Positions 27,421-64,000 of a stretch of DNA of 64,000 nucleotides are shown here, piece by piece. Below the pieces are notes generated by a model. It saw only the letters and a program-made list of their open reading frames with translations, was not told the DNA's origin and did no database searches. Source of the DNA: an uncultured cyanobacterium (GTDB taxonomy: Bacteria; Cyanobacteriota; Cyanobacteriia; Cyanobacteriales; CAWUOF01); contig CAVUSO010000001.1 of the NCBI GenBank assembly GCA_963744145.1, positions 3,520,001-3,584,000 of the forward strand, given 5' to 3'. Made by a program: the position numbers and the translations under genes. How positions within the stretch are numbered: position 1 is the stretch's first letter; each line of letters starts with the position of its first letter.

Positions 27421-28551
27421 TTAATCGTCTAATTTTTGTAAAGTCATACAAAAAGCATGTTGGGCAATTACCTGAGTAGTGATACTTTCAGGTAGAGTCG
27501 AATTATTGATTTCTTTAAATTTATTTTTCAAAATTTTAGCAATATCAATTTTATCATTAATCCATACTCGATCTGATGGAAAACATCGATGATGGGAATT
27601 GACAATGTAAAAATATCCTCCAGTTTTTAAAGCATAATTAATGCGATTTATTTCAAGATGAGGATCTAAACAATGTTGAATTACCCAAATACTATAGGCG
27701 TGGTTTACTTTTAAGCCATTGGTAATCATTCTATCTAAAGAGGTCGGCGAACAGGCTATAAATTTGGGAGAGTTGATATAGCTGATCGCTAATTGCAACA
27801 TCTGATTACTGATATCAACTCCCAAAACTGTACAATCATAAATAGCAATAATTTCCTTAGCTAAACGACCGATTCCACAGCCATAATCTAGAACAATATC
27901 GGTCGATTTAAGTTTTAGTTCTTTGCCTAATTGATCAACTAAATAAGGTGTTTCCTTTTCCCACCTTTCTTCAGTAGATGTACCTCGTTCTGGGGTTAAA
28001 ATAATGCTCTTTGCATCGGCGATGTTATTTACATAAAATACCTCTGGTCTATACATAGAAGCCAGGATTTCAGAATTGAGAAGAGAGCCTACTTTTGAAT
28101 TTAATTGAGGGCATTCTGCTTGAATTTCAAATGTTCTTTTCCAGAGGTTAATTACGTCATCTACTCTCTCTTGTTGAATGAACATTTTTGTCAAACTTTC
28201 ATAGGTTGCTTCGTGGCAAAGATTCTGGTCTAAAATTTGCCAAAAAATCTGCTCTGCTTGGATAAATTTGCCGATATTTTGGTAACTTTGAGCGTTTGTA
28301 TATAAAAATTCTATTAGTTCATTACTCCAGGTTTCTATTTGGGTTGAACTACCTGTAGCTATCACTGATAACCAAGTAGCTTGTGCTTCTACTTCTCTCC
28401 CTTCTAGTAAAAGTGCTAACCCCAAATACCAATAATTAGCTCTAACCGTAGGATCGGATTCAATTCCCTGTTCATAGAGAGCGATCGCATCTAGATATTT
28501 TTCTTCTTGGAAATATTCAGCGGCTTGTTTTTCTAAGTCGATAGATTCCAT
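27421..28551 (-). CDS. TPR + class I SAM methyltransferase
   Basis: N-terminal 'YWYLGLALLLEGREVEAQATW' module; 'VLDYGCGIGR'. Confidence 0.85.
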   Translation of the reverse strand: MESIDLEKQAAEYFQEEKYLDAIALYEQGIESDPTVRANYWYLGLALLLEGREVEAQATWLSVIATGSSTQIETWSNELIEFLYTNAQSYQNIGKFIQAEQIFWQILDQNLCHEATYESLTKMFIQQERVDDVINLWKRTFEIQAECPQLNSKVGSLLNSEILASMYRPEVFYVNNIADAKSIILTPERGTSTEERWEKETPYLVDQLGKELKLKSTDIVLDYGCGIGRLAKEIIAIYDCTVLGVDISNQMLQLAISYINSPKFIACSPTSLDRMITNGLKVNHAYSIWVIQHCLDPHLEINRINYALKTGGYFYIVNSHHRCFPSDRVWINDKIDIAKILKNKFKEINNSTLPESITTQVIAQHAFCMTLQKLDD

Positions 28552-28581
28552 AATCCCTCCATAGTGATTGATTTGAGTTTG

Positions 28582-29754
28582 TTAAATTGGTGATTTTTGC
28601 GCTCTTAAATATTCTTTAATTACCTCTAGATTAGATTGAGCATCTGCACAATTAGCATCAAAGGACAAAGCTAATTGAAATGCTGCTAATGCTTCGGTAA
28701 TCCGATTTAATTTGAGATAAGCCAATCCTAAACCACAAGCTGGAGATGTGGTCATAAAACTCTTTTCAAAAGGTTCCCCTTGATAATAACTCATAGTTCT
28801 ACCTAATTGAATACATTGCTCAAAATAAGCGATCGCACCCAGGGGAAACCCTAAATCTAATAACAGACAACCTGCTAAATAAACTAGGGGTGGAAATTCT
28901 CCACACCATTCTAAACCCCGCTGACTGAGTAAAATTACTGTTTCATAATCTTTTTGTTGTTTTGCTTCCATTCCCAAACTAAACAGTAAGGAGGGTACAA
29001 ATACAAATTCTGTCGGTGGTGTTCCCTCCATCAAATTGGGAAATAAGCGATCGTATGCTTCATTGTAGCATTGTTGTGATTTTTCTGGTTGCTCAATATC
29101 CCGATAACTTCCCGCTAGACCGTAAAGCAGTTTTAAACTGAGATTACCCTGTTGTCTCATCTTTTCCAGAATCGGGATATCTCGGTTGAGCAGTTTTTGT
29201 AATCTCTGTTGCTCTGTAAATTTACCATAACCAACAATTTTAATTTCCTCTAGGTACCTCCAACAATTTGCTGGAAAACTTTGACCGTAATATCTGATTT
29301 CTTCGTGGAGACAATTGACATATTTAATTTCGGGTAAATTGCGAAATAATTTGACTGTATAAAAAGAAGTCGCATTTGGTAAATCAGCTTCTAACCTCAG
29401 CAGAGAATAAGCTAGAATTTCTGGATGAGAATTTAATTGCTCCCCCAGGTTAGATGAATCAATTACTATTGTTTCATCTGCATCTAATACTAAAATCCAC
29501 TTTCCCGATGCGAGGGAAAGAGAATAGTTCCGAGCAGCAGCAAAATCATCACACCATTGAAATGTATCAACTTTTGCCCCATATTCAGCCGCAATCTTCG
29601 GTGTTCCATCTTCAGATCCTGTATCTACCACTATGATTTCATCAACGTAGGGTTTAGCACTAGTTAGACAGCGAGCTAAATTCTTTTTTTCATTTTTGAC
29701 AATCATACAGAGAGATAAAAAAGGCTGAGATCGTTCTGCTAATTTTTGCTTCAT
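28582..29754 (-). CDS. GT2 glycosyltransferase with C-terminal TPRs
   Basis: 'LSLCMIVKNE', 'VDTGSEDGT', 'DDFAAARN', 'LDADE'; ATG 29754. Confidence 0.9.
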   Translation of the reverse strand: MKQKLAERSQPFLSLCMIVKNEKKNLARCLTSAKPYVDEIIVVDTGSEDGTPKIAAEYGAKVDTFQWCDDFAAARNYSLSLASGKWILVLDADETIVIDSSNLGEQLNSHPEILAYSLLRLEADLPNATSFYTVKLFRNLPEIKYVNCLHEEIRYYGQSFPANCWRYLEEIKIVGYGKFTEQQRLQKLLNRDIPILEKMRQQGNLSLKLLYGLAGSYRDIEQPEKSQQCYNEAYDRLFPNLMEGTPPTEFVFVPSLLFSLGMEAKQQKDYETVILLSQRGLEWCGEFPPLVYLAGCLLLDLGFPLGAIAYFEQCIQLGRTMSYYQGEPFEKSFMTTSPACGLGLAYLKLNRITEALAAFQLALSFDANCADAQSNLEVIKEYLRAQKSPI

Positions 29755-29759
29755 TTTCC

Positions 29760-31415
29760 TTAAGTTGTTATTTTTTGAAGAGCTATGATTACTTGTGCAA
29801 AGACCCCAACCCAATCACCTAGATGTTCCTGACGAAATAAACGCATACTAGGATACCACGGACTGTCTTCACGCTCAAGTAGCCATCGCCAATCAGCAGC
29901 AAAACATAGTAATAACCATACTGGTTTTCCCAGAGCCCCAGTTAAATGAGCAACAGCGGTATCAACAGTAATGACTAAGTCAAGTTGGGAGATAATTTCA
30001 GCTGTATCAGCAAAGTCACCTAGAACAGGACTTAAATCTTGGATTATGTCTGAGGAAAATTGAGCTAATTCTGTTACAGGAGGTCCTTTTTGCAAGGAAA
30101 AAAAGGCAATATTTGGGATGTGGAAGAGTGCTTGAAAATCTTGCAGGGAACAGGAACGATAGCGATCGCTTTTATTAGTCGGACTACCAGCCCAAACAAT
30201 TCCTACTTTAAGTTTAGCATTTTTAGGCATTTCTAGTTTTAAATTTAGAGGTTCTTTTACACTTAGGTAGGGAATTGCTTGCGGTACTGTTGTGAGGGTC
30301 GTTCCAAATATTCTTGGTAAACTCATTAGTGGGACATGAACATCAAACTGAGGTAAATCAGCTCCTCTCGGAACTACCTGATCAATTCCAGGACAATTTA
30401 TGAGTAATCGAAATAGTGGTTGTTGACACTCAAAAACTACCATACCTCCACCAGCTTTTACCATCGGTGCATAGCGAATAAATTGAATTGTATCACCAAA
30501 ACCTTGTTCAGCATGAAGTAATATGGTGCGATCGGCAAGGTTTGAACCATCCCAGAGTGGTTGAGGAAAAGAACGGGGTTGATTTTCTTTCATATAAATG
30601 CGCCATTCATATTCAGTAAATCCCCGTTCAAATTCCCCCATCTTTAATAATATCATTCCCAAATTTCGATGAGCTTGCGCCCAATTTGGATTAATTTTAA
30701 TTGCTTGATTGCAAAAATCTATACCTTTTACTAATTCCCCCTGAGCAGCGACGATCATGCCCATATTATGGTAAGATTTAGCATGATTTGGATCAATTTT
30801 AATAGCTTTTTGATAGAATTCGATCGCCTCTTCTAATTTACCTTGCTGCTCAAAAACCACACCCATATTATAATAAGGTTGAACAATATTTGGATCAATC
30901 TCCGTCGCTTTTTGATAGCAAATTAGGGCGGATTCAAATTGATTTTGTTTCTCAAAAACTATTCCTTGATTATTATAAGCCATGAAAAAATCCGGGTCGA
31001 GATTAATCGCTTGCTCATAAGAACTAAGCGCAGCTTCAAATTGGTTTTGTGCTAATAAAATATTGCCGAGCTTATTATATATTTTCGGTAGTTCTGGGTT
31101 GAATTCAAGAATTTGCCGATAGATGATTTCCGCTTGGGGAAACTTACTTATTGCTTGCAAATTGGTGGCTTCTGTATCCAATAAATCAATCAATTCGACT
31201 GTCCAGGTTTCCAGTTCCTTTCCCGTCCCTTGGAGCATAATTGACCACCACAATTCTTGCGCTAGGGATTCTTTTCCTTGGAGCAAATATACTAATCCTA
31301 ATCGCCAATAATTATCTCGCTCGATGGGATAATTTTCAATACATTGTTGATATATAGCGATCGCTTCATCGTATTTTTCTTCAGCCAAATATTGGGCTGC
31401 TTCTTTACTGATCAT
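29760..31415 (-). CDS. TPR + GT-B (GT9-like) glycosyltransferase, paralog C
   Basis: TPRs; 'EQGFGDTIQFIRY', 'VGIVWAG', 'LDLVITVDTAVAHL', 'SPWYPSMRLFRQ'. Confidence 0.88.
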   Translation of the reverse strand: MISKEAAQYLAEEKYDEAIAIYQQCIENYPIERDNYWRLGLVYLLQGKESLAQELWWSIMLQGTGKELETWTVELIDLLDTEATNLQAISKFPQAEIIYRQILEFNPELPKIYNKLGNILLAQNQFEAALSSYEQAINLDPDFFMAYNNQGIVFEKQNQFESALICYQKATEIDPNIVQPYYNMGVVFEQQGKLEEAIEFYQKAIKIDPNHAKSYHNMGMIVAAQGELVKGIDFCNQAIKINPNWAQAHRNLGMILLKMGEFERGFTEYEWRIYMKENQPRSFPQPLWDGSNLADRTILLHAEQGFGDTIQFIRYAPMVKAGGGMVVFECQQPLFRLLINCPGIDQVVPRGADLPQFDVHVPLMSLPRIFGTTLTTVPQAIPYLSVKEPLNLKLEMPKNAKLKVGIVWAGSPTNKSDRYRSCSLQDFQALFHIPNIAFFSLQKGPPVTELAQFSSDIIQDLSPVLGDFADTAEIISQLDLVITVDTAVAHLTGALGKPVWLLLCFAADWRWLLEREDSPWYPSMRLFRQEHLGDWVGVFAQVIIALQKITT

Positions 31416-33018
31416 GATGTTTTTGAAAAAATTGGTGTGATCGATATTGATGATGGACTAAATTTTGGAGTTGCTGTGCGATGCGTTTAAATACTCCTGT
31501 CCAATCTCCCAGCCGATTTTGACGGAATAAACGCATCGTCGGATACCAGGGACTGTCCTCACGTTCCAGCAACCATCTCCAGTCACTTACAAAGGATAAA
31601 ATTACCCAGACTGGTTTTCCCAATGCTCCGGTTAAATGAGCAACAGCAGTATCAACTGTAATCACTAAGTCAAGTTGGGATATAATTGCCGCAGTATCAG
31701 CAAAGTCACCTAAATCTGAGCTTAAATCTTGGATGACTATTTCTGATGGTAACTGAGCTAAATCTAATGCTCTTGGTCCTTTTTGGAGACTGTAAAAACT
31801 AATACCCGATATCTGCAAAAGTTCTTGAAAATCAGTTAATGAACATGAACGACTCCGATCTCTAATATTATTAGGATTACCAGCCCAGACAATCCCGATT
31901 TTGAGCTGATTAGTTGTTGATTGTTCGAGCTGCAAATGGAGTGATTTTGGCGGACTAAGATAGGGAATTGAGCAGGGGATTGTTGCCAAAGTTGTGCCAA
32001 AAATCCGCGGGAGACTCATTAATGGTGCATGAACATCAAATGGGGGTAATTCCGCTTCAGTTATGACTAGCTGATTAATTCCAGCACAGGTAGTCAGTAA
32101 TCTGACCAGTGATTGTGGACACAAAACAATTACTTTTCCTCCATGCGCTTGTACTTTGGTAGCATAGCGGATCGCTTGGATTGTATCACCAAACCCCTGC
32201 TCGTGATGCAGCAAGATCCTCTTTCCCTCCAGGTCTGAACCATTCCAAACAGGTTGGGGAAATGAGCGGGTTTGATTTTTTTTCACTTGAGTGCGCCATT
32301 CATATTCAGCAAATCCAAGTTCAAATTCCCCCATTCTGAGTAACATCATTCCCAGACTTAAATGTGTTTCCCCCTTATTTGGATTAAGTGCAATCGCTTG
32401 ATGACAATAATTTATACCTTTGGCAAATTCTCCCTGATTTTCTAAGGCTAGACCCATATTATAGTAAGGTTGAACAATATTGGGATTAATATCGATCGCT
32501 CTTTGGTAGCAAATTACAGCAGCTTCAAATTTATTTTGTTTCTCAAAAACTGTTCCTTGATTATTATAAGCCATGAAGAAATTTGGGTCGAGATTAATCG
32601 CTTGCTCATAACAACTAAGCGCAGCTTCAAGTTGGTTTTGTGCTAATAATGTATTGCCGAGCTTATTATGTATTTTCGGTAGTTCTGGGTTGAATTCGAG
32701 AATTTGCCGATAGATGATTTCCGCTTGGGGAAACTTACTTATTTCTTGGAGATGGGTGGCTTCTGTATCCAATAAATCAATCAATTCGACTGTCCATGTT
32801 TCCAGTTCCATGCTCGTTCCTTGGAGCATAATTGACCACCACAATTCTTGCGCTAGGGATTCTTTTCTTTGGAGCAGATATACTAATCCTAATCGCCAAT
32901 AATTAGCTCGATCGGTAGGATAATTTTCAATATATTGTTGATATATAGCGATCGCTTCCTCATATTTTTCTTGAGCCAAATACTCTGCTGCTTGGTGGTT
33001 TAGAGCGGGAACATTCAT
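31405..33018 (-). CDS. TPR + GT-B (GT9-like) glycosyltransferase, paralog B (chimeric)
   Basis: Same motifs as paralog C; ATG 33018 (MNVPALNHQAAEYL). Confidence 0.88.
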   Translation of the reverse strand: MNVPALNHQAAEYLAQEKYEEAIAIYQQYIENYPTDRANYWRLGLVYLLQRKESLAQELWWSIMLQGTSMELETWTVELIDLLDTEATHLQEISKFPQAEIIYRQILEFNPELPKIHNKLGNTLLAQNQLEAALSCYEQAINLDPNFFMAYNNQGTVFEKQNKFEAAVICYQRAIDINPNIVQPYYNMGLALENQGEFAKGINYCHQAIALNPNKGETHLSLGMMLLRMGEFELGFAEYEWRTQVKKNQTRSFPQPVWNGSDLEGKRILLHHEQGFGDTIQAIRYATKVQAHGGKVIVLCPQSLVRLLTTCAGINQLVITEAELPPFDVHAPLMSLPRIFGTTLATIPCSIPYLSPPKSLHLQLEQSTTNQLKIGIVWAGNPNNIRDRSRSCSLTDFQELLQISGISFYSLQKGPRALDLAQLPSEIVIQDLSSDLGDFADTAAIISQLDLVITVDTAVAHLTGALGKPVWVILSFVSDWRWLLEREDSPWYPTMRLFRQNRLGDWTGVFKRIAQQLQNLVHHQYRSHQFFQKHHDQ

Positions 33019-33026
33019 AATGATAT

Positions 33027-34703
33027 TTAATAGGATTTTGCTAAATTTTGGAGTTGTTGTGTTACTTGTGTAAATACTCCAGCCCAATCTCCCAGGTTTG
33101 GCTGACGAAATAAACGCATACTGGGATACCAAGGAGTATCAGAACGCTCTAAGAGCCATCGATTATCTGGTACATAAGATATTAGCACCCAGACTGGTTT
33201 GCCGATCGCTCCAGTTAAATGTGCAACAGCAGTATCGACAGTAATGACTAGATCAAGCTGGGATATAATTGCCGCAGTATCAGCAAAGTCACCTAACTCA
33301 GAGTTTAAATCTTGGATCACTATTTCTGATGGTAATTGAGCTAAATCTAATGCTCTTGGTCCTTTTTGGAGACTGTAAAAAGTAATCCCAGATATCTGCA
33401 AAAGGTCTTGAAATTGAGTTAAAGAACAGGAACGACTACGATCTTTAGGATGATGAGGATTACCTGCCCAAACGATCCCAATTTTGAGCTGGTTAGTTTT
33501 TGGTTCGAGTTGACAATTGACCGATGTTGGAGGACTTAGATAGGGAATTGAGCAAGGGATTGTTTCTAAAGTAGTTTTAAATATATAGGGAAGACTCATT
33601 AAGGGTAAATGAACATCAAACCTGGGTAACTCAGTTTCAGTAACAACTAGTTGATTGATTCCAGCACAAGTAGACAGTAATCTAGCCAGTGGTGGTGGAC
33701 ATAAAACTACTACTTTTCCACCACAGGCTTGAACTTTTTCTGCATAACGGATAAACTGAATTGTATCACCAAAACCATATTCAGCATGAAGTAAAATTGT
33801 ACTTCCTGCTAAATCTGAACCATCCCAAAGCGGTTGAGGAAAAGAAAGTGGTGGATTCTCTCCTCCTAACCCCATCCGCCATTCCGCTTCAGCAAATCCA
33901 TGTTCAAAGTCTCCACATCTGATTAAAATTAGCCCTCGATTTAAGTGGGCATTACCAAAGTTTGGATTCAGTTCAATTGCCCGACTGTAGCATTCTAGGG
34001 CTTCTTTAAACTCTCCTCGATCTTCAAGAGCTAATCCTAAGTTGTTATGTAGTAAAGCATTGTTGGGATCAAGTTGAAGGGATTGCTGATAATAACTAAT
34101 CGCTTGATCTAGTTGGTCTTGTTTTTGAAAAATAATCCCTAAATTGTAGTAAGTCATCGCGAATTTTGGCTCGATCGCAAGGGCTTTTTGGTAACAAGTT
34201 ATTGCCTGATCAATTCGACCTTGTCTCTCAAAAATTAATCCTAAATTATGATAATTAATTGGAGAATTTGGAGCTAAATTTATCGCTTGTTCATAGCAAT
34301 ATATAGCTGACTCAAGCTGATTTTGGCTAATTAAGATATTGCCTAATATGTTATATATTTCAAGTGCTTCTGGCTGTAATTCTAAAATTTGCCAATAGAT
34401 GGTTTCTGCTAATTGCAATTTTCCTGATTCCAGGTAATCGGTTGCTACTGCTTGCAAAAACTCAATTAATTCAGTTGTCCAGATTTCAATTTGTTCAGGA
34501 TTTCCTAAGCTAATTGCTGATAACCATACTCCTTGAGCTTCTAATTCTTCTCCTTGGAGTAACCAGGCTAATCCTAAATTCCAATAATTAGATTGGTCTG
34601 TAGGCTGCTCGGTAATACATTGTTGGTAAATAGCGATCGCTTCGGGATATTTACATTGAGCTAAATATTCACCAGCCTGTTGCGGTCGGGCAATAATTTC
34701 CAT
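33027..34703 (-). CDS. TPR + GT-B (GT9-like) glycosyltransferase, paralog A
   Basis: Same motifs as paralog C; GAGG RBS upstream. Confidence 0.88.
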   Translation of the reverse strand: MEIIARPQQAGEYLAQCKYPEAIAIYQQCITEQPTDQSNYWNLGLAWLLQGEELEAQGVWLSAISLGNPEQIEIWTTELIEFLQAVATDYLESGKLQLAETIYWQILELQPEALEIYNILGNILISQNQLESAIYCYEQAINLAPNSPINYHNLGLIFERQGRIDQAITCYQKALAIEPKFAMTYYNLGIIFQKQDQLDQAISYYQQSLQLDPNNALLHNNLGLALEDRGEFKEALECYSRAIELNPNFGNAHLNRGLILIRCGDFEHGFAEAEWRMGLGGENPPLSFPQPLWDGSDLAGSTILLHAEYGFGDTIQFIRYAEKVQACGGKVVVLCPPPLARLLSTCAGINQLVVTETELPRFDVHLPLMSLPYIFKTTLETIPCSIPYLSPPTSVNCQLEPKTNQLKIGIVWAGNPHHPKDRSRSCSLTQFQDLLQISGITFYSLQKGPRALDLAQLPSEIVIQDLNSELGDFADTAAIISQLDLVITVDTAVAHLTGAIGKPVWVLISYVPDNRWLLERSDTPWYPSMRLFRQPNLGDWAGVFTQVTQQLQNLAKSY

Positions 34704-34857: not shown

Positions 34858-34887
34858 ATACTCTTCTACGCCCTTCAACTTCGCCCC

Positions 34888-34992
34888 CTTCGACTACGCT
34901 CAGGGCACGCTTCGACTTCGCTCAGGGCACGCTTCGACTTCGCTCAGGGCACGCTTCGACTTCGCTCAGGGCACGCTTCGACTTCGCTCAGG
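34888..34992. repeat. Tandem 22-bp repeat (4.8 copies)
   Basis: CTTCGACT(A/T)CGCTCAGGGCACG units at 34888, 34910, 34932, 34954 and partial at 34976; no spacers. Confidence 0.92.
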
Positions 34993-35975: not shown

Positions 35976-36020
35976 TAAGAGCGTTTTTTACTTTGTTGAG
36001 CTGATCAAAATTTTAATCAA

Positions 36021-36055
36021 GGCTATCAGTCAAAAGAGTTTGGCTGATAGTTTTT
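36021..36055 (+). terminator. Intrinsic terminator/attenuator between pilA and OGT gene
   Basis: GGCTATCAGTCAAA-AGAG-TTTGGCTGATAG hairpin followed by T5. Confidence 0.7.
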
Positions 36056-41797: not shown

Positions 41798-41828
41798 ATT
41801 GATTTTACAGAAATTTAACTTTTTACAT

Positions 41829-43847: not shown

Positions 43848-43855
43848 TTTTTTAA

Positions 43856-45898: not shown

Positions 45899-45913
45899 AG
45901 ATAAGTCCTAATG

Positions 45914-47563: not shown

Positions 47564-47592
47564 ATATAGTTCGATGTAATTAATTTTTATCC

Positions 47593-54589: not shown

Positions 54590-57500
54590 TTAGTGATCTA
54601 ATTTCCAGACAGAGAGATTTTCTGCATTAGCCTGTAGTAATGCTGATTTATTTTCATGTTCTAAACTAATCCGACTGTGAATCTTAGACAAAAGTGCTGA
54701 CCATTGGTTTGGGTTCATCTTGTCCAGCAAAGTAATTTCTGGCACTTCGGTTTCATCTAACTCTTTTTGCATGAGTAGATTCATAATTACACCAGATAAA
54801 ACCAGATTTGCATCTTCTGCTGAGATATTGCTGGTATCAAGTAGTACAGTTATTTGATTTTTCTGAGGATGAGTTAAGATGGTGCTAATTAAATTTTCTA
54901 ACTCAAGATAAAGCACATCTTCAGGTTGCTGCCAATCTGGAAAAGCAATTAAGTTAATCGTTCTCAGATTTAAGGTATGGATAAATGTGTCGGATCTTTC
55001 TAAAGCAGATTTTGAGGGTCCGATCGCTACTTCTGGCTCTAACTGATAACGCTGTAGCAACTGTTCAGCTCTAGCGAATTTTGGTAAAATTTTTAATACT
55101 GTTTGTGCAGCTTGTTTAGCTAATTGGATATTACCCATCTTTTCTGCCGTTTGTGCCAAATGCCAAAAAGTACGCCAATAACTATAATTTTGGGTAACTG
55201 GGTCTTCTTTTTGAAACCATACTCCAGTATAATCAATTACACGCAAACCATAAACCTCACCCCGCCGACATTCAAATTCGTCGATCGCTTTTCGACAACC
55301 TTCCCAATGACCATAGTCATCGATCTGAATAATTCCATAGGGAACAATACTGTCATAGAGTGTGTTAAATATATCCATGGTTGACTCGTACCAATCCCCA
55401 TCCGCATGGAGTAAGGCAATATTACCTATCTCTGCTTGGTATTGCGGTAAGGTATCAGCAAATAATCCTGGGACTGGGATCACAAGATCTTTAACATTTA
55501 AAGATTGACAGATTACATCTAAATTTTCCACGATTGGAGCAGCAAGAGTGCCGATGCCAAATTGGGTCATATTCGCAGGAATTCCGTTACTTTTATCAGC
55601 TTCAGTAGGAGCTGGCATCCCTGTAAAGGTATCAAAAGCATATAGCGATCGCGGACGCAAACTATATCTTTTGATTACTAATGCTAGCAATGCTGATGCT
55701 CCTCCTTTGTAAGTACCGCATTCAACAAAGTTACCAGGGAGATCGTCTATACAAATTTGTTTAGCTAGAGAGTAAAGAGAGAATAAACGTTCTTCACTCA
55801 ATAGAGTATAGGGTCGAATCTCCCTCAGAATTTCTTGAAACTCCTGCTCGCGATCGCGAATAACTGGATTTCTATATTGTGCCAAAATATGATGTTGTAT
55901 ACTTTTTTCAACATTTCCTATCTGCCAATAAAGAAAGCTGAGATCGTGATGAACTATTTTCAATTCGGGATTAGCTTTTACGATTTCTGTAAAAATATCA
56001 CTTGCTTGTTTAATTACCCCTTTCACCAAAAATTCTTTACCTTGTTGATAGGATTCAGCTATTTTTTTCTGATCGAAATTATGAGTAACTTTTGGATTAA
56101 AATCATTAGCAAACTTTTGGACATAGCCAAATAACTGAATTAAGAATGAATCAGTTGAATCAAATTCTTGGCTCGGGGAATCAATTAATTTTTTGAGAAA
56201 CCCATTTGTACACCAGGTAAGATTATATCCAAAATAGTCACAATAGTGACTATCAATTTCATATTCATCTGGATGGTTTGCTAAAAATTCTTTTAATGCC
56301 TTATGGGGACCATTATTATAGGAAACATCTTGGCGTAAATCAGAAATAATTCCATCTTCAATGACAATATATTCTTCTGATTTTAAATAAGGATGAAAAA
56401 ATTCTAAAACATATTTACTGGTTTCATAAGCATGATCTGCGTCTTCAATTACCAGTAATGGGCGCACAATTGTGTTCATAAATTCTGGAGTCAACGTGGC
56501 TGACAATGCTCTCCCATCACCCTCTATAAAAGTTACACGAGGATGTTCTAAGGAAGTTATTTTGACGATATCGATTGAATAAATATGTCCGTCAATACCA
56601 AAATTATTCATCATATCCCCGAGCCACAATGCACTACCACCATCCTTAGAACCAATTTCAATAATTGTGCGCGGCTTTAAATTCCAAATTAAAATCGGGT
56701 AAAGTGCTAAGTCAAAGGGATTTTTGATCATGGGCACACCACGATAGGAATAGCTCATGCTACCTTTTTGAATAGACAGAAGGGTATCGCGTGGAAGTGT
56801 TGTATTCCAAGTTCGCTGTTGAGCAGGAATATTTGGTTCTGATTGCCGAAACAATCTGGTTACATTTTCAACTTGAGCTTGTGCTTTAACATGGGTTGGG
56901 TTGATCAATAATTCCGCTTTGGCTGCTGCTAAAGCTTCCTTATGTCGTCCCACATTAGATAGACAAATAGACCTGATATAGTGCATTTCTGGCACATTTA
57001 CACCCATTAATGATGCTTTTTCAGCGATCCGCATAGCATCAACTGGTTTACCACTAGATAATGAATTAATTGCTAGTTTCATCATTTCTTGCACTTGCTG
57101 GACTAGCATTTCCTGATTTTTAGATGGATCATCTACCAGACCACTGATCTGATAATTTTGCAAATGAGTAGGCAAAATCCAGGTAATTTTTGGGTCAGGT
57201 TGATGGGTAACTGGTTCTACATTTCCTCTCCAGGCAACTCCCATAATTTGCATGGTTTGATAAACCATTGTTTGCCACCCTTTTGCTTTCAAGTAGTCCA
57301 AACCTTCGGCTACTGCTGGAGCTGCTAGATCATGGAATAAAATTAAAGCATCTGATTCGGCTAATTGTTCACAAGCGATCGCATCATTCAACGGTCCTGG
57401 TGTTTCATGATTCCCATCTATAAAAATCAGTGACCATTTCCGTTGAGATTGAGCGGCTAATTCTACTACTGTTTGGGGACTAGAGCCAGCAACTAGATTA

Positions 57501-57892
57501 ACTCTCTCCCACACCTCAGCCATTTTTAAGGAATTACTGACACTTTCATAAAAATCAGGTCTTCCTAAAATCGGATCAACTACATCTAACTCTACCCCTG
57601 CTAGTGCTAAATGACAGGCTGACCAACCAAACCAACAGCCAATTTCTAGAGCTTTTTTTCCTTTAAATTTGAGGGCTGTATTATAAAGAATATGAGCTTC
57701 ATCGCGACTGACAAACCCCACACTTGGCACGCGCTGATCCACATACCAGTTATGGGGAATCTCTCGTCGCAAATAAGGCCAAATACAATTATTTGTATCT
57801 CCCGCAATCATATTCGGAAAACATTGATCAGGTTGAATCATCAAAAAATCAGGCGAAATATAATCTCTAGCAGGTAATCCGGTAGGTTCCAT
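54590..57892 (-). CDS. Multi-methyltransferase: Methyltransf_24 + TPR + CmcI-like + TylF/MycF-like + conserved C-terminal domain
   Basis: 'ALEIGCWFGWS..IFIDGNH'; 'GVPMIKNPFD..IIEIGSKDGGS..IEDADH'; 'GNFVECGTYKGG..DTFTG..LHADGDWYES'. Confidence 0.85.
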   Translation of the reverse strand: MEPTGLPARDYISPDFLMIQPDQCFPNMIAGDTNNCIWPYLRREIPHNWYVDQRVPSVGFVSRDEAHILYNTALKFKGKKALEIGCWFGWSACHLALAGVELDVVDPILGRPDFYESVSNSLKMAEVWERVNLVAGSSPQTVVELAAQSQRKWSLIFIDGNHETPGPLNDAIACEQLAESDALILFHDLAAPAVAEGLDYLKAKGWQTMVYQTMQIMGVAWRGNVEPVTHQPDPKITWILPTHLQNYQISGLVDDPSKNQEMLVQQVQEMMKLAINSLSSGKPVDAMRIAEKASLMGVNVPEMHYIRSICLSNVGRHKEALAAAKAELLINPTHVKAQAQVENVTRLFRQSEPNIPAQQRTWNTTLPRDTLLSIQKGSMSYSYRGVPMIKNPFDLALYPILIWNLKPRTIIEIGSKDGGSALWLGDMMNNFGIDGHIYSIDIVKITSLEHPRVTFIEGDGRALSATLTPEFMNTIVRPLLVIEDADHAYETSKYVLEFFHPYLKSEEYIVIEDGIISDLRQDVSYNNGPHKALKEFLANHPDEYEIDSHYCDYFGYNLTWCTNGFLKKLIDSPSQEFDSTDSFLIQLFGYVQKFANDFNPKVTHNFDQKKIAESYQQGKEFLVKGVIKQASDIFTEIVKANPELKIVHHDLSFLYWQIGNVEKSIQHHILAQYRNPVIRDREQEFQEILREIRPYTLLSEERLFSLYSLAKQICIDDLPGNFVECGTYKGGASALLALVIKRYSLRPRSLYAFDTFTGMPAPTEADKSNGIPANMTQFGIGTLAAPIVENLDVICQSLNVKDLVIPVPGLFADTLPQYQAEIGNIALLHADGDWYESTMDIFNTLYDSIVPYGIIQIDDYGHWEGCRKAIDEFECRRGEVYGLRVIDYTGVWFQKEDPVTQNYSYWRTFWHLAQTAEKMGNIQLAKQAAQTVLKILPKFARAEQLLQRYQLEPEVAIGPSKSALERSDTFIHTLNLRTINLIAFPDWQQPEDVLYLELENLISTILTHPQKNQITVLLDTSNISAEDANLVLSGVIMNLLMQKELDETEVPEITLLDKMNPNQWSALLSKIHSRISLEHENKSALLQANAENLSVWKLDH

Positions 57893-57944: not shown

Positions 57945-60900
57945 TTATGCCTCAGTCTCTGTCTGAAACAAATTGCTGCTAAAATCAACTAGCTGATAGG
58001 TAGAAATTCTGTCTGCCCCCACCTGGGCGATCGCTTCTTGATTTTCATGGGTCAAGATAATGCGAGCATGAAGTCGCTCCATTAAAGCTTCCCATTGAAT
58101 TTTACTTAAATTACCCATTAAGGAAATTTCTATTTCTGCGGTGACATCCAAATCCTCTTCCATGAGTAAATTCATCACGATACTGGATAAAAGCAAATCT
58201 GCATCTTCTTGTTCAATATTACTGATATCAATCAGCAAAGTCAGGCGATTTTTATCAGGATGAGATGCGATCGCTTTTAATACTGTTGCTAAATCTAATC
58301 CCAGCTCTGCTTCAGGTTGACGCCAATCTGGGAAAACAATTAAATTAATCTCTCTTAATTTTAAATGTAACAGGGTTGTATTAATCAAAATAGCTGCCAC
58401 TGTATTAGCCATTTTTGACCATGAAAAATTTTGAGCTTGGGCAAATCCAGCCGTTCTTAAGGAGTTGCGAATATCATTTTTTTGCACTTCACATAGAGCA
58501 TTTGTCAACCCATTGATATCTTCATCATTAACATATAAAGCTGCTGTCCCAGCTACTTCTGGAATCGAAGCATTAGCACAAGTGATCACAGGACATCCAC
58601 AGGACATCGCTTCCAATACTGGTAAACCAAATCCTTCATATTTGGAGGGATAAACTAATGCTACAGCACCAGCATAAGCTAATCTTAACTCTTCATCACT
58701 AAGTTGTAATAGATGAACAATAACACCTTCAGTATAAGCTCGAAATTGACTTTCTAATACAAATCCCGTTCCGGTACAAACAATCTCAAATCCTTGTTTA
58801 GTACAAAGTTGCGAGAAAGCTTTAAAAAATAACATATTATTTTTATGACTAGTTCCTCCTCCCACGGAAAGAAAATATGGTTTTGTCATGCCATACTTGA
58901 TTTTAAAAGAATTAATTTCTTCTAGCAGGGCTGGATAAAATTTGCGACTAACACCACAATAAGCGACTTTAATAGAGTCTAAAGAAATTGCTGGAAAAAA
59001 TCTTGCTAAGTCGTTGGCTGTGTTTTTTGAAATCGAGATATATGCTGAAGCACGATTAATCGCATGATGTTTTTCTTGCCATACTGGTTCTCTGAGATCA
59101 CTACCCATCACTTCAGGAATCATGTCATAAACCATAAATACAGAAGGTGTCGTGATTGGTGTTGTGTAATAAGTAGAGATAAATAGATCAGCAGATTCTT
59201 CATCACATATTTCTTGCAGCATTTCCCGATCGGTCTCGATGTTAGCATAATTATATGGTGGCACCCATTTATATTTTACCCCACTCATTTTCGGAGCAGT
59301 ACCCCCCCGATCTAGGACGATAATGTACTTAGCAAAACCATTGTCTGTCCATTCTGCTAGCAATGATTTCCAGACCCGGGCAATCCCTGTTTGATGAAGT
59401 TGGAAAAATACACCATCAATCAATATTTTTGGAGATACTTTCTGAACAGGATCGATTTTTGCTGATAATTTTTCTGGTGGTAAAAAGCGCCAGATCTTAG
59501 TATTTTCCTCTTTTTGAGCGATCGGTACTATTCTATAGGAATCGATCGTATCAACCATGGTATCATCGAACACCCATTGGAAATGTTCCCGCAATAAGAT
59601 TGGTAATTTTGTTTGTTTCTGTAATTCTTCCCATTGAGAAACTGCATTTTGATAACCATAATATTGTTCTTTAAATTGCAATTGCTCTGGGGTAACATAG
59701 GCAAAGTGTTGAAAGATCAAACCTTCTTTTTCTGTTTCTTCATGCAAAAAAGGATTTAATTCTGCCAGATCTTGCCATTCCCCACTTGGTAAAGCTTGAC
59801 ATAATCTGGGTGGTTCATGTCTAGCCCAGAATGCTCCCGGTTGATATCTCCATGTCCGCAACCATTCCCAGTCAGGATTTTGAGCATAACAGTTGCGAGT
59901 GCTAATAATTAATTTTTCTCCAACAAAATACCAACACCAGTAAAATGCGGCTGTTTTGGTGGGATTTTCAATAAACATTTGTCGCGCTATACAAATCTGT
60001 TCAGCTGTCCATAATTCATCGACATCTACTTGCCACAGTAAACATTCTGTACGAATATTATTCACTAATGGTGCATTTACCATTTCCCGTTTTCCATCCC
60101 AGAAAATTCCTTCGGGTTTCCGATAAACTGTGACATTTTCTGGATATAGTTGTACTAATTCATCTAAATACTCAGATGTACCATCTTTGCTTCGTCCCTG
60201 ATGATGGATTTCATTAGATATGTAGGCATTATTAGGTAAAGACCAGGCTGTATCATGTTTCAAGTCTGCTACACCTTCAATAATATGCCAATGCCATGGA
60301 TAGGGTAGTTGTCTGAAAACTTCTATGTGATAGTCAATAAATGGTTTACCATTCAGAACGATCGTAAAGAAATGAATTGGTAAATTTAGATTTATATGAG
60401 ATGGAATAGCAACAGATTGTTTTTGACCACAGGCAAGAGTTGATGAATATTCGTGATTGATCAGACGATTTTTGGCAATTTTATGCCAAACTCGTTCAGA
60501 ACCGGGCCAAGTAGGTACAACATCATGAAATGCGATCCACCCACCTTCTTTGATCAGATTGTAGGAAAGTTCAAAATCTTTTAAAACATCTAAAAATTGA
60601 TGAGAACCATCAATAAAAATAAAATCAATTTCCTGTTCACCTGCTAATTCTTGCCATTGACTTAATACTTGGTGGGAATAACCCTGTAAAGGGATTACAT
60701 AGGGAGATAATCCATTTTTTTCTATATTGTTCTGCCAAATATCGAAAAATTTTCGGTCAGGAAAGTCACTATCATTTCCGTCCCAGGTATCAATGCAATA
60801 AATTTTGCGGTTACTTCCTATACAAGCATAAGCCATTGCCACAGTAGAACGTCCTTTATAGGAACCTATTTCCACAATTACAGCCCGATCGGGCAGAGCT

Positions 60901-61688
60901 TTTACTTTATTAAAAAGATACTTTTCTTGTCCAGGAACCATAAAACCTTCGATTGCTTCAACTATTGGTTGGATACTTTTGTAAGTGATCAGGCGATCGC
61001 TGCTAGTTTTTTTGAAGATCGCATAACCATTACGAAGATTTAAGTTTTGGGCAATGAGAGTGTAACTATTATCCTGAGAAAGACGTTGGCGATTTTGATA
61101 ATTTTTAAAAGTATTGACATCATCCAGACAAATATATTTAGCACCATAAACTTCTTCGAGTTCAGCTAAACCTGTAAACTCTGAACCATCGATTAAAACC
61201 AGATCAAAATTATCGATATTGTTTTCTTTTTTAATTTTTTCAATCCCCTCACTTTCAATGCTATAGCTTTTTATATATTCAATATCTTGACGTAACCACC
61301 CTAAAACCATTTCCAAAGGATAAAGATTTAGATTAGTGCTATTGCTTTTATAAAAATCACTAATTTCTGATTCATCAGGAAACTCTGCTAGAGATACAGA
61401 AGAGATATTATAACATTTGACAAAATCATATTGAGCATACCTGTTTTGCAATTCAAAAAATCTTGGTTTTGAGACTTCTAGACAATACAGATTTGGTTGA
61501 TTTTGATTTTCGAGAATTCCGGTTACAAATGCTAATGTGCTTCCTTCACCTGATGAAGAACCTATTTCTAAAATTGTTTTAATATCTGCTTCTTTTGCGA
61601 TCTTGTTCAGATGATAGAATAATTCATCATTTTTGATTTCCGGAGGGATAATTTGATTCAGTTCTGAGTTTTCCATATTTGTAATCAA
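57945..61688 (-). CDS. Two MTase-like domains + GT-A-like domain + GT4 + conserved C-terminal domain
   Basis: 'ILEIGSSSG', 'VEIGSYKGRST..FIDGSH', 'FFTIVLNG..WQVDVDE', 'TGIARVW', 'YPSKYEGFGLPVLEAM'. Confidence 0.85.
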   Translation of the reverse strand: MITNMENSELNQIIPPEIKNDELFYHLNKIAKEADIKTILEIGSSSGEGSTLAFVTGILENQNQPNLYCLEVSKPRFFELQNRYAQYDFVKCYNISSVSLAEFPDESEISDFYKSNSTNLNLYPLEMVLGWLRQDIEYIKSYSIESEGIEKIKKENNIDNFDLVLIDGSEFTGLAELEEVYGAKYICLDDVNTFKNYQNRQRLSQDNSYTLIAQNLNLRNGYAIFKKTSSDRLITYKSIQPIVEAIEGFMVPGQEKYLFNKVKALPDRAVIVEIGSYKGRSTVAMAYACIGSNRKIYCIDTWDGNDSDFPDRKFFDIWQNNIEKNGLSPYVIPLQGYSHQVLSQWQELAGEQEIDFIFIDGSHQFLDVLKDFELSYNLIKEGGWIAFHDVVPTWPGSERVWHKIAKNRLINHEYSSTLACGQKQSVAIPSHINLNLPIHFFTIVLNGKPFIDYHIEVFRQLPYPWHWHIIEGVADLKHDTAWSLPNNAYISNEIHHQGRSKDGTSEYLDELVQLYPENVTVYRKPEGIFWDGKREMVNAPLVNNIRTECLLWQVDVDELWTAEQICIARQMFIENPTKTAAFYWCWYFVGEKLIISTRNCYAQNPDWEWLRTWRYQPGAFWARHEPPRLCQALPSGEWQDLAELNPFLHEETEKEGLIFQHFAYVTPEQLQFKEQYYGYQNAVSQWEELQKQTKLPILLREHFQWVFDDTMVDTIDSYRIVPIAQKEENTKIWRFLPPEKLSAKIDPVQKVSPKILIDGVFFQLHQTGIARVWKSLLAEWTDNGFAKYIIVLDRGGTAPKMSGVKYKWVPPYNYANIETDREMLQEICDEESADLFISTYYTTPITTPSVFMVYDMIPEVMGSDLREPVWQEKHHAINRASAYISISKNTANDLARFFPAISLDSIKVAYCGVSRKFYPALLEEINSFKIKYGMTKPYFLSVGGGTSHKNNMLFFKAFSQLCTKQGFEIVCTGTGFVLESQFRAYTEGVIVHLLQLSDEELRLAYAGAVALVYPSKYEGFGLPVLEAMSCGCPVITCANASIPEVAGTAALYVNDEDINGLTNALCEVQKNDIRNSLRTAGFAQAQNFSWSKMANTVAAILINTTLLHLKLREINLIVFPDWRQPEAELGLDLATVLKAIASHPDKNRLTLLIDISNIEQEDADLLLSSIVMNLLMEEDLDVTAEIEISLMGNLSKIQWEALMERLHARIILTHENQEAIAQVGADRISTYQLVDFSSNLFQTETEA

Positions 61689-61708
61689 CTAAGTTTTCTA
61701 GTCAGACC

Positions 61709-63214
61709 TTAACTGAGATCATATCTTGATAATTTACTAAAATCAATTAGCTGATCGGTAGAAATTCTATCTGCCCCCACCTGGGCGATCGCCTGTTGAT
61801 TTTCATGGGCTAAAATAATTCGAGCCTGAATTTGGGGCATCAAAGCGTCCCATTGAATTTTACTTAAGTTACCCATTAACGAAATTTCTATTTCGACCGT
61901 GACATCTAAATCCTCTTCTATACACAAGTTCATTATTACACTAGATAGAAGCAAATTAGCATCTTCTTGACTAATATTACTAGCATCAATCAGCAAGGTC
62001 AGACGGTTTTTATGAGGATGCACTGCCAGGGTTTTCAATACTATTGCTAAATCTGATCCCAGTTCGATTTCAGGTTGATTCCAATCTGGAAAAATAATGA
62101 AATTAATATCTCTTAATTTTAAAGGTAAAAGAGTAGTATTAATCAAAACTGTTGCAACCGTCTGCGCCATCTTTGACCATGAAAATTTTTGAGCTTGGGT
62201 TAATCCATCCGCAATTAAGGAGTTACGAATATCATTTTTTTGGACTTCACAGAGAGCATTGGTAAACCCATTGATATCTTCATCATTCACATATAAAGCT
62301 GCTGTCCCAGCTACTTCCGGAATCGAAGCATTAGCACAAGTGATCACAGGACATCCACAAGCTAGTGCTTCTAACACTGGTAAACCAAATCCTTCATATT
62401 TAGATGGATAGACCAAAGCAACCGCACCAGCATAAGCTAATCTTAACTCCTCATCACTAGGCCGTAATGGATGGACAACACTACCTTGAGTATAAACCCT
62501 AAATTCATTTTCTAATACAAATCCAGTGCCGACACAAAGAATCTCAAATCCTTGTTTAGTCAAGAGTTGCGAGAAAGCTTTAAAAAATAACATATTATTT
62601 TTATAACCTGCTCCTCCACCCACAGAAATAAAGTAGGGTTTGGTAATCCCATATTTATTTTTAAACCAATTAATTTCTTCCTGTTTGGCGGGAGAAAATT
62701 TATGAGAAACACCACAATAAGCGACCTGAATCGAATCTAACTTAATGGTTGGAAAAAATTTTACTAAGTCGTTAGCTGTATTTTGTGAAATTGAGATATA
62801 GGCAGAAGCATAATTAATTGCATGATGCTTTTCTTGCCATTCTGGTGCTCTAAGATCATCCCCCAATACTTCAGGAATCATATCATAAACTAGCAACACA
62901 GATGGCGTTGTGAGTGGGGTAGTAAAATAAGTAGAAATAAATAAATCAGCAGATTCTTCATCACATACTTCCTGGAGCATTTCCCGATCGATATCTCTTG
63001 TATTAATATTATAAGGGGGCACCAATTTATATTTTATCCCACTCATTTTTGGCATAGTATCTGCTCGATCTAGGACAATTATATACTTGGCAAAACCAGT
63101 TTCTACCCACTCTTCCAGCAATGATTGCCAGACTCGAGTAATCCCGGTTCGATAAGATTGGAAAAATACACCATCAATCAATATTTTTGGAGATACTTCT
63201 TGATTTTTTTTCAT
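61709..63214 (-). CDS. GT4 glycosyltransferase + conserved C-terminal domain
   Basis: 'TGITRVW', 'YPSKYEGFGLPVLEALACG'; paralog of the 3' part of 57945..61688. Confidence 0.9.
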   Translation of the reverse strand: MKKNQEVSPKILIDGVFFQSYRTGITRVWQSLLEEWVETGFAKYIIVLDRADTMPKMSGIKYKLVPPYNINTRDIDREMLQEVCDEESADLFISTYFTTPLTTPSVLLVYDMIPEVLGDDLRAPEWQEKHHAINYASAYISISQNTANDLVKFFPTIKLDSIQVAYCGVSHKFSPAKQEEINWFKNKYGITKPYFISVGGGAGYKNNMLFFKAFSQLLTKQGFEILCVGTGFVLENEFRVYTQGSVVHPLRPSDEELRLAYAGAVALVYPSKYEGFGLPVLEALACGCPVITCANASIPEVAGTAALYVNDEDINGFTNALCEVQKNDIRNSLIADGLTQAQKFSWSKMAQTVATVLINTTLLPLKLRDINFIIFPDWNQPEIELGSDLAIVLKTLAVHPHKNRLTLLIDASNISQEDANLLLSSVIMNLCIEEDLDVTVEIEISLMGNLSKIQWDALMPQIQARIILAHENQQAIAQVGADRISTDQLIDFSKLSRYDLS

Positions 63215-63237
63215 CTTTGGTTGTAATCCCTCTGTTG

Positions 63238-63387
63238 TTAAAAATTGACCTCTCCCCCAACCCCTCTCCTAAAAGGAAAGGGGAGCAAGAATGATTCCGC
63301 ATTCCATTTCTGATTAATTTAATCATCTTAATTGCTCCCCCTTCCCTCTTAGGGAAGGGGGTTGGGGGGTTAGGTCAATATTTTTAA
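63238..63387. repeat. Cyanobacterial palindromic dispersed repeat / MITE-like element
   Basis: TTGACCTCTCCCCCAACCCC...GGGGTTGGGGGGTTAGGTCAA terminal IR with internal CCCCTTCCCT/AGGGAAGGGG hairpins. Confidence 0.75.
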
Positions 63388-63477
63388 CCCTAGCTTACCC
63401 AATTTTCCCAAAAAATATCAGTCTATTAAAAAAACCTTAAGCAAATTTGATAATTTTTAACAATTTGCCCAAATTCA

Positions 63478-64000
63478 TCAAAATATGTTCATGATTGAAT
63501 TTAATTCGCAGGTAGGAATTATTTCTGCTCCCACATCAGCGATCGCTGATGAATTTTCATTTTCCCCCACAATTCGAGCTTTAATCTGTGGGATTAATGC
63601 TTTCCATTGAATTTGACTTAATTTACCAATTAACGAAATTTCTATTCCTGTTGTAACATCTAGCTCTTCTTCCATTAACAAGTTCATTGCGATACTAGAT
63701 AAAATCAGGTCTGCATCTGCTTCATTAATATTGCTAGTGTCTATTAGTAAAGTCAAGCGATCTTGATCAGGATAGGATGCGATCGCTCTGAACAATGTTT
63801 TTAAATCCAATTCTAGGGACTCTTCTGGTTGACACCAATCAAGAAAAATAATTAAATTGACTTCTCTTAATTTTAAATATAAAAGAGTCGCATTAATCAA
63901 AGCTGACGCAATAGTCTGAGCCATTTTTGCCAAAGAAAACTTTTGTGCTTGAGTCAATCCAGCAACGATTAATAAGTTGCGAATATCCGGTTTTTGTACT
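63478..64000 (-). CDS. 3' end of another GT4 + conserved C-terminal domain paralog (5' outside window)
   Basis: Frame is open to the window edge (VQKPDIRNLLIVAGLTQAQKFS..LKLREVNLIIFLDWCQPE). Confidence 0.8.
   Translation of the reverse strand, partial: VQKPDIRNLLIVAGLTQAQKFSLAKMAQTIASALINATLLYLKLREVNLIIFLDWCQPEESLELDLKTLFRAIASYPDQDRLTLLIDTSNINEADADLILSSIAMNLLMEEELDVTTGIEISLIGKLSQIQWKALIPQIKARIVGENENSSAIADVGAEIIPTCELNSIMNIF

Follow-up and report, generated by a model that had tools for sequence, protein, structure and literature searches.

The window analyzed here, a 64,000-nucleotide stretch (C1:3520001-3584000) of the 7.7-Mb genome of an uncultured cyanobacterium, carries in its right-hand part a large island of glycosyltransferase and methyltransferase genes that encloses the type IV pilin gene pilA and an adjoining gene for an OgtA-like glycosyltransferase (g7); DNA beyond the window was also examined. 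Based on the open reading frame (ORF) listing and Pfam annotation, the island extends from approximately 27421 to 68812 (41.4 kb) and encodes 21 enzymes in addition to the pilin. Twenty long ORFs occupy the interval from 27421 to the window end—the pilin gene plus 19 genes for glycosyl- or methyltransferases—in agreement with a preliminary description of this DNA, which had reported more than 36 kb with about 19 enzyme genes around pilA. The island then runs approximately 4.8 kb past the window end, and the boundary splits one gene (g20). At least five transcription units of alternating direction make up the island. It is not centered on the pilin gene, as had been described: pilA lies 8 kb from the left island end and 33 kb from the right.

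Pfam assigns the glycosyltransferase domains to GT41 (three), a GT9-like family fused to tetratricopeptide repeats (TPR; three), GT2 (one), GT61 (one), and GT4 (six; in g15, g16, g18, g19, g20, and at the N-terminus of g14), which upholds the three GT41/OGT-like, three TPR-GT9-like, one GT2, and several GT4 proteins reported earlier. The methyltransferase families named in the preliminary description (FkbM three times, CmcI, TylF, and Methyltransf_24/11) were likewise recovered, but its count of about ten domains was too low. Pfam identifies 14: Methyltransf_24 (seven; g8, g9, g10, g11, g12, g17, and g18), FkbM (three; g10, g11, and g12), one CmcI-like and one TylF domain (both in g17), and two Methyltransf_11-like domains (g1 and, weakly, g13). 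TylF, CmcI/rhamnosyl-O-methyltransferase, FkbM, and Methyltransf_24 are sugar-O-methyltransferase types. TPR or TPR-like parts are present on 13 of the 21 enzymes. No nucleotide-sugar synthesis gene was found within the island, and an Rfam scan of the whole window returned no family at the gathering score.

The pilin gene and its OgtA-like neighbor

The pilA gene (35454-35975, forward strand; Pfam and NCBIfam) encodes a type IV prepilin of 173 aa with N_methyl and Pilin_GH domains, in which a 21-aa leader precedes G|FTLIELL and leaves a mature protein of 152 aa. The pilin is Ser/Thr-rich, as previously noted: these residues number 39 (26%) in the mature protein and make up 35% of its C-terminal 92 residues, as compared with a mean of 10.6% over the island enzymes. 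Cys120 and Cys144 bracket a stretch of 25 aa (Cys included) containing 12 Ser/Thr. Two other pilin-like genes in the genome, at C1:6.907 Mb (44% identical) and C1:7.025 Mb (truncated, beside a transposase gene), both lack glycosyltransferase neighbors; pilA is the only full pilin of its type in the genome that has them. From the synteny described below, pilA is probably the major pilin.

Alignment with the pilins of related genomes is confined to residues 1-92, indicating a hypervariable C-terminal part, which is common in pilins. Larger islands seem to accompany more Ser/Thr-rich pilins among the relatives, an anecdotal trend to which one genome (G033) is an exception. The pilin in the window ends in AEQMQ. 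In two relatives, a Methyltransf_31 class I gene lies directly upstream of pilA (L033:16967-18442 in G013; L035:17581-18246 in G027), and the pilins there end in ...AIK; this gene could encode a pilin lysine methyltransferase. Trimethylation of the C-terminal lysine of Synechocystis PilA1 is mentioned in a recent review (PMC12288463).

Approximately 100 bp beyond pilA and on the same strand lies g7 (36076-38220), which encodes an OgtA-like GT41 protein of 714 aa that begins with the head module described below (assigned by Pfam, OGT alignments, and orthologs). Its PF13844 score is 185.6 bits. In alignments, the protein covers the two catalytic lobes of human OGT (E 7e-47; chain residues 232-392 and 512-705) and also matches SPINDLY and the Thermobaculum and Xanthomonas (XcOGT) enzymes, and its first 270 residues can be aligned with the TPR arrays of g3-g5. 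No N-terminal hydrophobic segment is apparent (maximum 19-residue Kyte-Doolittle mean, 1.25). A His and a Lys at aligned OGT positions, which we take to be H498 and K842 of the human enzyme, are preserved in all three island GT41 domains; in g7, the Lys of GYKRHP aligns to that of LYKIDP in human OGT. Presumably this Lys also corresponds to K445 of Synechococcus elongatus Ogt, though the alignment made here was to human OGT.

In S. elongatus, Ogt is encoded beside pilA, has no secretion signal, and is described as required for a size shift of PilA and for its N-acetylglucosamine (GlcNAc)-lectin signal; a K445A allele fails to complement, and K445 is named as an essential lysine (PMC9306852). 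The same study counts 77 cyanobacterial genomes out of 201 in which ogt adjoins a pilin gene (PMC9306852), and a 2025 review repeats the Ogt-PilA account (PMC12288463). As judged from sequence, the core formed by pilA and g7 is this published PilA-Ogt pair.

Two noncoding features flank pilA. A terminator-like hairpin with a 16-bp stem and a T-rich tail (36019-36054, forward strand) lies in the gap between pilA and g7; this pattern match, from a consensus scan only, fits the separate control seen in Nostoc punctiforme, where ogtA is SigJ-dependent and pilA SigF-dependent (PMC6495340). Upstream of pilA, a 22-bp tandem repeat (34888-34992; 4.8 copies, 98% matches, unit CTTCGACTTCGCTCAGGGCACG) sits in the 750-bp intergenic region that separates the divergently oriented g5 and pilA.

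Accessory enzymes of the island

The genes to the left of pilA are all on the reverse strand. The first, g1 (27421-28551; 376 aa), joins the head module to a class I S-adenosylmethionine-dependent methyltransferase of the Methyltransf_11/25 type (Pfam, head alignment, and tblastn), and g2 (28582-29814; 410 aa; Pfam and NCBIfam) combines GT2 with C-terminal TPRs. The best NCBIfam match of g2, the SunS peptide S-glycosyltransferase family, scores 64 bits against a cut-off of 350 and is thus far below it. g3 (29760-31415; 551 aa; Pfam, modeling, and Foldseek) consists of a head, a TPR array, and a GT9-like GT-B domain. Its paralogs g4 (31405-33132; TPR and GT9-like, 63% identity to g3) and g5 (33027-34703; head, TPR, and GT9-like, 56% identity) were assigned by Pfam and BLAST.

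Paralog alignment suggests that several of the listed ORF starts are too far upstream: g4 aligns with its paralogs only from residue 39, so that its true start is probably there (about 33018), and for g9 (39101-41869) the alignment begins only at residue 25.

Membership of g3-g5 in the GT9 heptosyltransferase family is tentative. Their PF01075 scores (21.5-23.2 bits) straddle the cut-off of 22 and cover only approximately 32 residues; homologs have a precomputed PF01075 annotation. The modeled domain (predicted local distance difference test, pLDDT, 93.4) gave as its best Foldseek match the GT9 structure 3tov (E 3e-7, TMq 0.57), along with WaaF, WaaC, and the protein heptosyltransferase TibC (E 1e-4), and weakly matched a methylmannose-polysaccharide mannosyltransferase (7qsg, E 9e-4). 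The family has more than 8000 homologs, at approximately 50% identity across phyla.

To the right of g7, six genes lie on the reverse strand: g8 (38246-38962; 238 aa; Pfam), a stand-alone Methyltransf_24; g9 (922 aa; Pfam and BLAST), a fusion of Methyltransf_24, TPR, and GT41 that NCBIfam matches weakly, and far below the cut-off, to an HMW1C-type protein N-glucosyltransferase; g10 (41829-43865; 678 aa; Pfam, BLAST, and NCBIfam) and g11 (43856-45898; 680 aa), both with Methyltransf_24, TPR, and FkbM; g12 (45914-47563; 549 aa), in which the TPR part is short and the FkbM part shares 80% identity with its g11 counterpart; and g13 (47593-48312; 239 aa), a weak Methyltransf_11-like protein (Pfam, 25 bits). 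Three genes on the forward strand follow. g14 (48649-52011; 1120 aa) carries a GT4 domain, an internal head (residues 386-500), and a GT41 part 50% identical to g7, and the GT4 proteins g15 (52066-53259; 397 aa; Pfam and NCBIfam) and g16 (53315-54493; 392 aa) are 71% identical to each other.

The next four genes, again on the reverse strand, share a C-terminal tail module: g17 (54590-57892; 1100 aa; Methyltransf_24, CmcI/rhamnosyl-O-methyltransferase, TylF, TPR, and tail); g18 (57945-61688; 1247 aa), with an N-terminal domain of no known family, Methyltransf_24, GT4, and tail; g19 (61709-63214; 501 aa; GT4 and tail), 79% identical to the matching part of g18; and g20 (63478 to approximately 65763, with the window ending at 64000; 761 aa), with an N-terminal domain, GT4, and tail. 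Past the window end, g21 (about 65760-66221) encodes a TPR protein of 153 aa, and g22 (about 66236-68812; 858 aa) combines a head, TPR, and GT61.

This inventory contains much tandem paralogy. In an all-against-all BLAST comparison, g3/g4/g5 share 56%-63% identity, the Methyltransf_24-TPR N-terminal parts of g9-g12 share 36%-63%, g15/g16 share 71%, and g18/g19/g20 share 65%-79%, with domain loss in g19 and g20. GC content falls to 0.33 over 41829-48312, a stretch comprising the three Methyltransf_24-TPR-FkbM genes and g13, as compared with approximately 0.40-0.45 in the flanks. Together with dispersed repeats and a flanking 1.5-kb inverted repeat (below), these features might suggest that the island encodes no coherent pathway at all, and instead reflects a pile-up of recently duplicated, partly decaying paralogs at a recombination-prone site. 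We regard this as very improbable: all 21 reading frames are long and intact, Pfam domains cover them almost end to end, the GT41 His and Lys residues are preserved, and the paralogs, at 47%-80% identity, are not recent copies.

The repeats and the surroundings of the island include several further features. A dispersed repeat of approximately 130 bp between g19 and g20 (approximately 63246-63385), which looks like a miniature mobile element, has at least 40 chromosomal copies at 77%-90% identity. A 1.53-kb inverted repeat (97.2% identity; 21432-22961 and about 72269-73791, the latter L009:9269-10791) is present in just two copies in the genome, each carrying an exonuclease III-like gene (proteins 98% identical). 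It brackets a segment of approximately 49 kb comprising pyrG, a ROK kinase gene, an ABC permease gene, the whole island, and genes for an aldehyde dehydrogenase and a thiamine pyrophosphate (TPP) enzyme; recombination between the two copies could invert this segment.

Right of the island, the genes are unrelated to it (the split aldehyde dehydrogenase gene, the TPP enzyme gene, the exonuclease III-like gene and, further on, TamB). The aldehyde dehydrogenase gene is split into two ORFs (L009:6040-7408, about window 69040-70408), as is a histidinol dehydrogenase gene elsewhere (L050:4600-5918); both splits represent frameshifts or sequencing errors. Left of the island, a group at 16025-20159 comprises a resolvase fragment, two unannotated ORFs, a pPIWI_RE-type RNase H module protein (18093-19259), and a SocA/Panacea antitoxin-like gene (19710-20159), and may be a defense or mobile cluster. 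PAM68, pentapeptide-repeat, and phycobilisome genes in the surroundings are consistent with a cyanobacterial host.

Shared modules and conservation of the locus

Two modules recur across the island enzymes. The head, a helical, TPR-like region of approximately 110 residues belonging to no known family, stands at the N-terminus of g1, g3-g5, g7, and g22 and internally in g14, between GT4 and GT41. It is thereby shared by seven enzymes of four catalytic types: Methyltransf_11 (one), GT9-like (three), GT41 (two), and GT61 (one). When all seven heads were used as tblastn queries against the 7.7-Mb genome, exactly seven places were matched by every query, all of them within the island; GT9-like and GT61 paralogs outside the island match only downstream of the head.

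The tail, of approximately 135 residues, is C-terminal on g17, g18, g19, and g20, and these four copies are the only ones in the genome. It has no Pfam match at E≤1, and its sole Atlas match is an unnamed cyanobacterial cluster (score 0.84). The tail model (pLDDT 88) is a Rossmann-like alpha/beta domain whose best structural matches, the GT-B C-lobe of Xanthomonas OGT (Z 8.9) and Gap1/Asp1 (Z 8.0-8.1), are borderline and at a commonly seen level.

Comparison of pilA neighborhoods across related strains, a check proposed in the preliminary description, was carried out from the best g7 ortholog outward. Forty relatives, nearly every one belonging to another family within the order, were searched, and most contain a g7 ortholog at 40%-60% identity over its full length. 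For 16 of these, 25-60 kb around the best ortholog were queried by tblastn with all 22 island proteins. Of the 16, 15 have a pilin within approximately 5 kb of the g7 ortholog, and 14 have additional genes for glycosyl- or methyltransferases within 20 kb; these counts are descriptive only because the relatives are not independent. The pilins were located by tblastn (14 loci) and by a motif scan, which added the pilin of G004 and gave no match in G019 or G022; G022 alone is pilin-less by both methods.

Gene sets differ from locus to locus, and the present island is the largest among the loci seen. In 12 of the 16 relatives, the extra genes were found by tblastn with the island proteins and include g18-like Methyltransf_24/GT4 genes, a second g9-like GT41, g21-like TPR genes, GT61, GT2, and Methyltransf_24. 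Pfam annotation covered three of the four remaining, minimal-looking loci (G019, where the contig ends 2.4 kb past the gene, was left out) and added two more: G013, where pilA is preceded by a Methyltransf_31 gene and ogtA is followed by two FkbM genes, and G027, with a Methyltransf_31 gene and a GT4. In the third, G033, Pfam identified no extra glycosyl- or methyltransferase gene.

Both modules appear again in the relatives. The head forms the N-terminus of the g7 ortholog in all 16 and is also found there on one GT61 and one GT4 protein. Among 33 tail copies in the 40 relatives, 20 lie within 20 kb of the best g7 ortholog on the same contig, as compared with a chance expectation of approximately 1% of copies for genomes of 3-8 Mb; counted by genome, 14 of the 23 relatives that have a tail have one near the g7 ortholog.

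Proposed pathway and acceptor, and known systems

None of the 21 enzymes has a signal peptide or membrane helix in a hydropathy scan, and the pilin alone has a strong helix. A Pfam scan covering 20 ORFs of the island, 25 on its left, and 13 in the 19 kb past the window end found no flippase, polymerase, chain-length, ABC-2 exporter, phosphoglycosyl-transferase, or oligosaccharyltransferase family in the island and its flanks, and no Wzm/Wzt, PCP, or OPX gene in the window or the 19 kb beyond it. At the level of Pfam, the absence of Wzx, Wzy, Wzc, an ABC exporter, and a polyprenol-phosphate transferase from the window, as reported earlier, thus holds. The preliminary description had allowed that export genes just beyond the window would point to a polysaccharide locus; Pfam identified none in the 19 kb to the right, and an exporter just outside the window was rejected after these 19 kb and the 27 kb to the left had been checked. 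The lone nearby transporter gene encodes an importer-type BPD_transp_1 permease (26456-27340).

These data bear on whether the island makes a glycan that is not attached to protein, either a polysaccharide exported by machinery encoded elsewhere (a pilus-dependent hormogonium route, or an ABC pathway with a methyl cap) or an intracellular polymethylated polysaccharide as in mycobacteria. ABC-transporter O-antigen pathways typically involve large multidomain proteins of the GT4/methyltransferase kind; the GT4 proteins match EpsE, HpsP, and HpsO weakly by NCBIfam; the GT9-like model has its weak match to 7qsg; and soluble enzymes without export genes would suit an intracellular product. However, the HpsO/HpsP matches (25-57 bits) are tenfold below their cut-offs (550-575), the window and the 19 kb beyond it yielded no initiating transferase, flippase, polymerase, or other export component, 13 of the enzymes carry TPR or TPR-like protein-binding parts, and the island is linked to pilA-ogtA across families. 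A protein-free product accordingly seems improbable.

Instead, we favor with moderate confidence the interpretation that this is an expanded pilA-ogt locus for cytoplasmic, direct-to-protein, sequential O-glycosylation of PilA with O-methylated glycans, and that the product of the island is probably a methylated sugar coat on the pilus, unusually elaborate and specific to the strain. The acceptor, sugars, methylation, step order, and complex that we infer would be as follows. g7 would attach the first sugar—GlcNAc, by analogy with S. elongatus Ogt—from a nucleotide sugar directly to Ser/Thr of the pilin. The other head-bearing transferases, with the second and third GT41, the three GT9-like proteins, and GT61, would start additional glycans or act at other sites, and the GT4 and GT2 enzymes would lengthen the glycans. 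The 14 methyltransferase domains, among them the TylF, CmcI, FkbM, and Methyltransf_24 types, would O-methylate the sugars, though a few may methylate protein. All steps would be performed by soluble cytoplasmic enzymes, with no lipid carrier, flippase, or oligosaccharyltransferase, as is the case when flagellins, serine-rich-repeat adhesins, and HMW1 are glycosylated, and the head, tail, and TPR arrays would recruit the enzymes to the same substrate or to each other. An earlier suggestion that such a coat varies a phage-receptor surface is compatible with the variable gene sets and with the low-GC stretch at 42-48 kb.

A more speculative extension, which we consider possible but put forward only tentatively, is that head and tail are docking tags through which a plug-and-play glycosylation factory forms on the prepilin in the cytoplasm; a catalytic domain of any kind, whether GT41, GT9-like, GT61, GT4, or methyltransferase, could join once it acquired a tag, and domain shuffling confined to this locus would then yield a hypervariable, heavily O-methylated pilus coat. 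If this is true, the island would provide a protein-borne counterpart of O-antigen diversity without a lipid carrier, and bulky glycans would be attached before or during Sec insertion of the pilin. Modules that are docking tags would also offer a compact handle for glycan engineering on displayed pili.

Several observations weigh against PilA as the target of the whole enzyme set. GT41 is not peculiar to this locus: the genome contains at least 10 GT41 genes, four of which are TPR-GT41 genes that follow one another in a second cluster (L049; C1:6044799-6053122) away from any pilin, and TPR-GT61, TPR-GT9-like, and GT4 paralogs also occur elsewhere in the genome. tblastn found a GT9-like gene in none of the 16 relatives' pilA loci. 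Nor did a pilin-motif ORF occur near the GT9-like genes at any of 75 loci of other organisms (Microcoleus, Azospirillum, Acidobacteriota, Planctomycetota, and others; flanks up to 10 kb per side), while four of the 75 contain a flagellin motif; as a control, the same pilin-motif scan found pilins at 14 of the 16 ogtA loci and gave three matches in the whole of the host genome. The tie of g3-g5 to the pilin therefore comes from their position in the island and the shared head. Thirteen of the 33 tail copies in relatives are not near a g7 ortholog, several of them on small contigs; such copies occur in 9 of the 23 relatives that have the tail, and in G027 they adjoin another GT41 gene. Finally, methyltransferases of the Methyltransf_11/31 type could have protein rather than sugar as substrate.

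The L049 cluster has as neighbors genes for a Ser/Thr kinase, a large AAA/GAF histidine kinase, and an amine oxidase.

Much of this would be expected if the island carried out cytoplasmic protein glycosylation with main acceptors other than PilA (secreted or surface proteins, minor pilins, or regulators), g7 alone acting on PilA and the remaining genes having arrived through recombination at a swap-prone site. This account is harder to reconcile with a head common to the OgtA-like enzyme and six other island enzymes and absent from paralogs outside the island, with the recurrence of accessory genes at pilA-ogtA in 14 of 16 relatives, and with the lack of any further candidate acceptor gene in the island, and we therefore consider it unlikely, although more plausible than a protein-free glycan.

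Topology is the other difficulty for cytoplasmic glycosylation of PilA. The Ser/Thr-rich pilin domain is periplasmic after insertion, whereas all of the enzymes look cytoplasmic. The TPR-scaffolded cytoplasmic pathway of the preliminary description thus stands in part: the lack of signal peptides and helices in the 21 enzymes and the 13 enzymes with TPR parts speak for it, and the topology speaks against it. Cytoplasmic glycosylation ahead of Sec export has precedents in HMW1C, Aah/TibC, and GtfA/B. In Synechocystis, membrane-bound prepilin is reported to be glycosylated slowly after synthesis (PMC8546353), a poor fit with a cytoplasm-only route.

Known systems resemble the proposed pathway in part. 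The closest are the PilA-Ogt/OgtA pairs themselves (Synpcc7942_0048/0049 and 0051 in S. elongatus; pilA and ogtA in N. punctiforme), in which, as in the island, the gene after that of the major pilin encodes a TPR-GT41 protein lacking a secretion signal. In comparison, the island adds 20 soluble glycosyl- or methyltransferase genes, two of them GT41, and six enzymes other than OgtA bear the OgtA N-terminal head; the published systems comprise one enzyme and a GlcNAc signal, with no methylated multi-sugar glycan described. PilO/TfpO, PglL, and TfpW of Pseudomonas, Neisseria, and Acinetobacter likewise O-glycosylate a type IV pilin, with genes beside pilA. However, they depend on an undecaprenol-linked glycan, on a flippase, and on a membrane oligosaccharyltransferase that works on the periplasmic side, and no such family was found among the ORFs of the island and its flanks. 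A Wzx/Wzy or ABC-transporter polysaccharide locus would similarly be expected to include an initiating transferase, a flippase/polymerase or Wzm/Wzt, and PCP/OPX, and these were not found at the island.

Flagellin glycosylation islands (Caulobacter FlmG, Listeria GmaR, Maf) offer another parallel: soluble, repeat-bearing transferases glycosylate a filament subunit directly and sequentially before export, and gene content varies among strains. The island shares with them soluble transferases with protein-binding repeats, but no Maf or FlmG member was identified in it. Their substrate, moreover, is exported through the flagellar type III channel, whereas the pilin is a Sec-inserted membrane protein. 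HMW1C, TibC/Aah, and GtfA/B with Asp/Gap show GT41 and GT9 folds acting on protein acceptors in the cytoplasm before Sec export. The island's links to these systems (the weak HMW1C-type match of g9, the TibC match of the GT9-like model at E 1e-4, and the resemblance of the tail to Gap1/Asp1) are all distant, and it differs from them in having no accessory Sec system or autotransporter and in the acceptor, which would be a pilin. The pilA-ogt pair and its role are already published; the new element is the expanded island with its tagged multidomain glycosyl- and methyltransferases, and no description of such an expanded pilA-ogt island was found in the literature searched.

Type IV pili in cyanobacteria serve in motility, DNA uptake, biofilm control, and phage adsorption, and glycosylation of their pilins has so far been known to the level of one enzyme, Ogt. 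To this the locus adds 21 candidate genes and two unannotated modules. It suggests that some cyanobacteria make complex methylated pilin glycans wholly with soluble, repeat-tagged enzymes, and it sharpens the question of how cytoplasmic transferases modify the outer domain of a membrane-inserted pilin.

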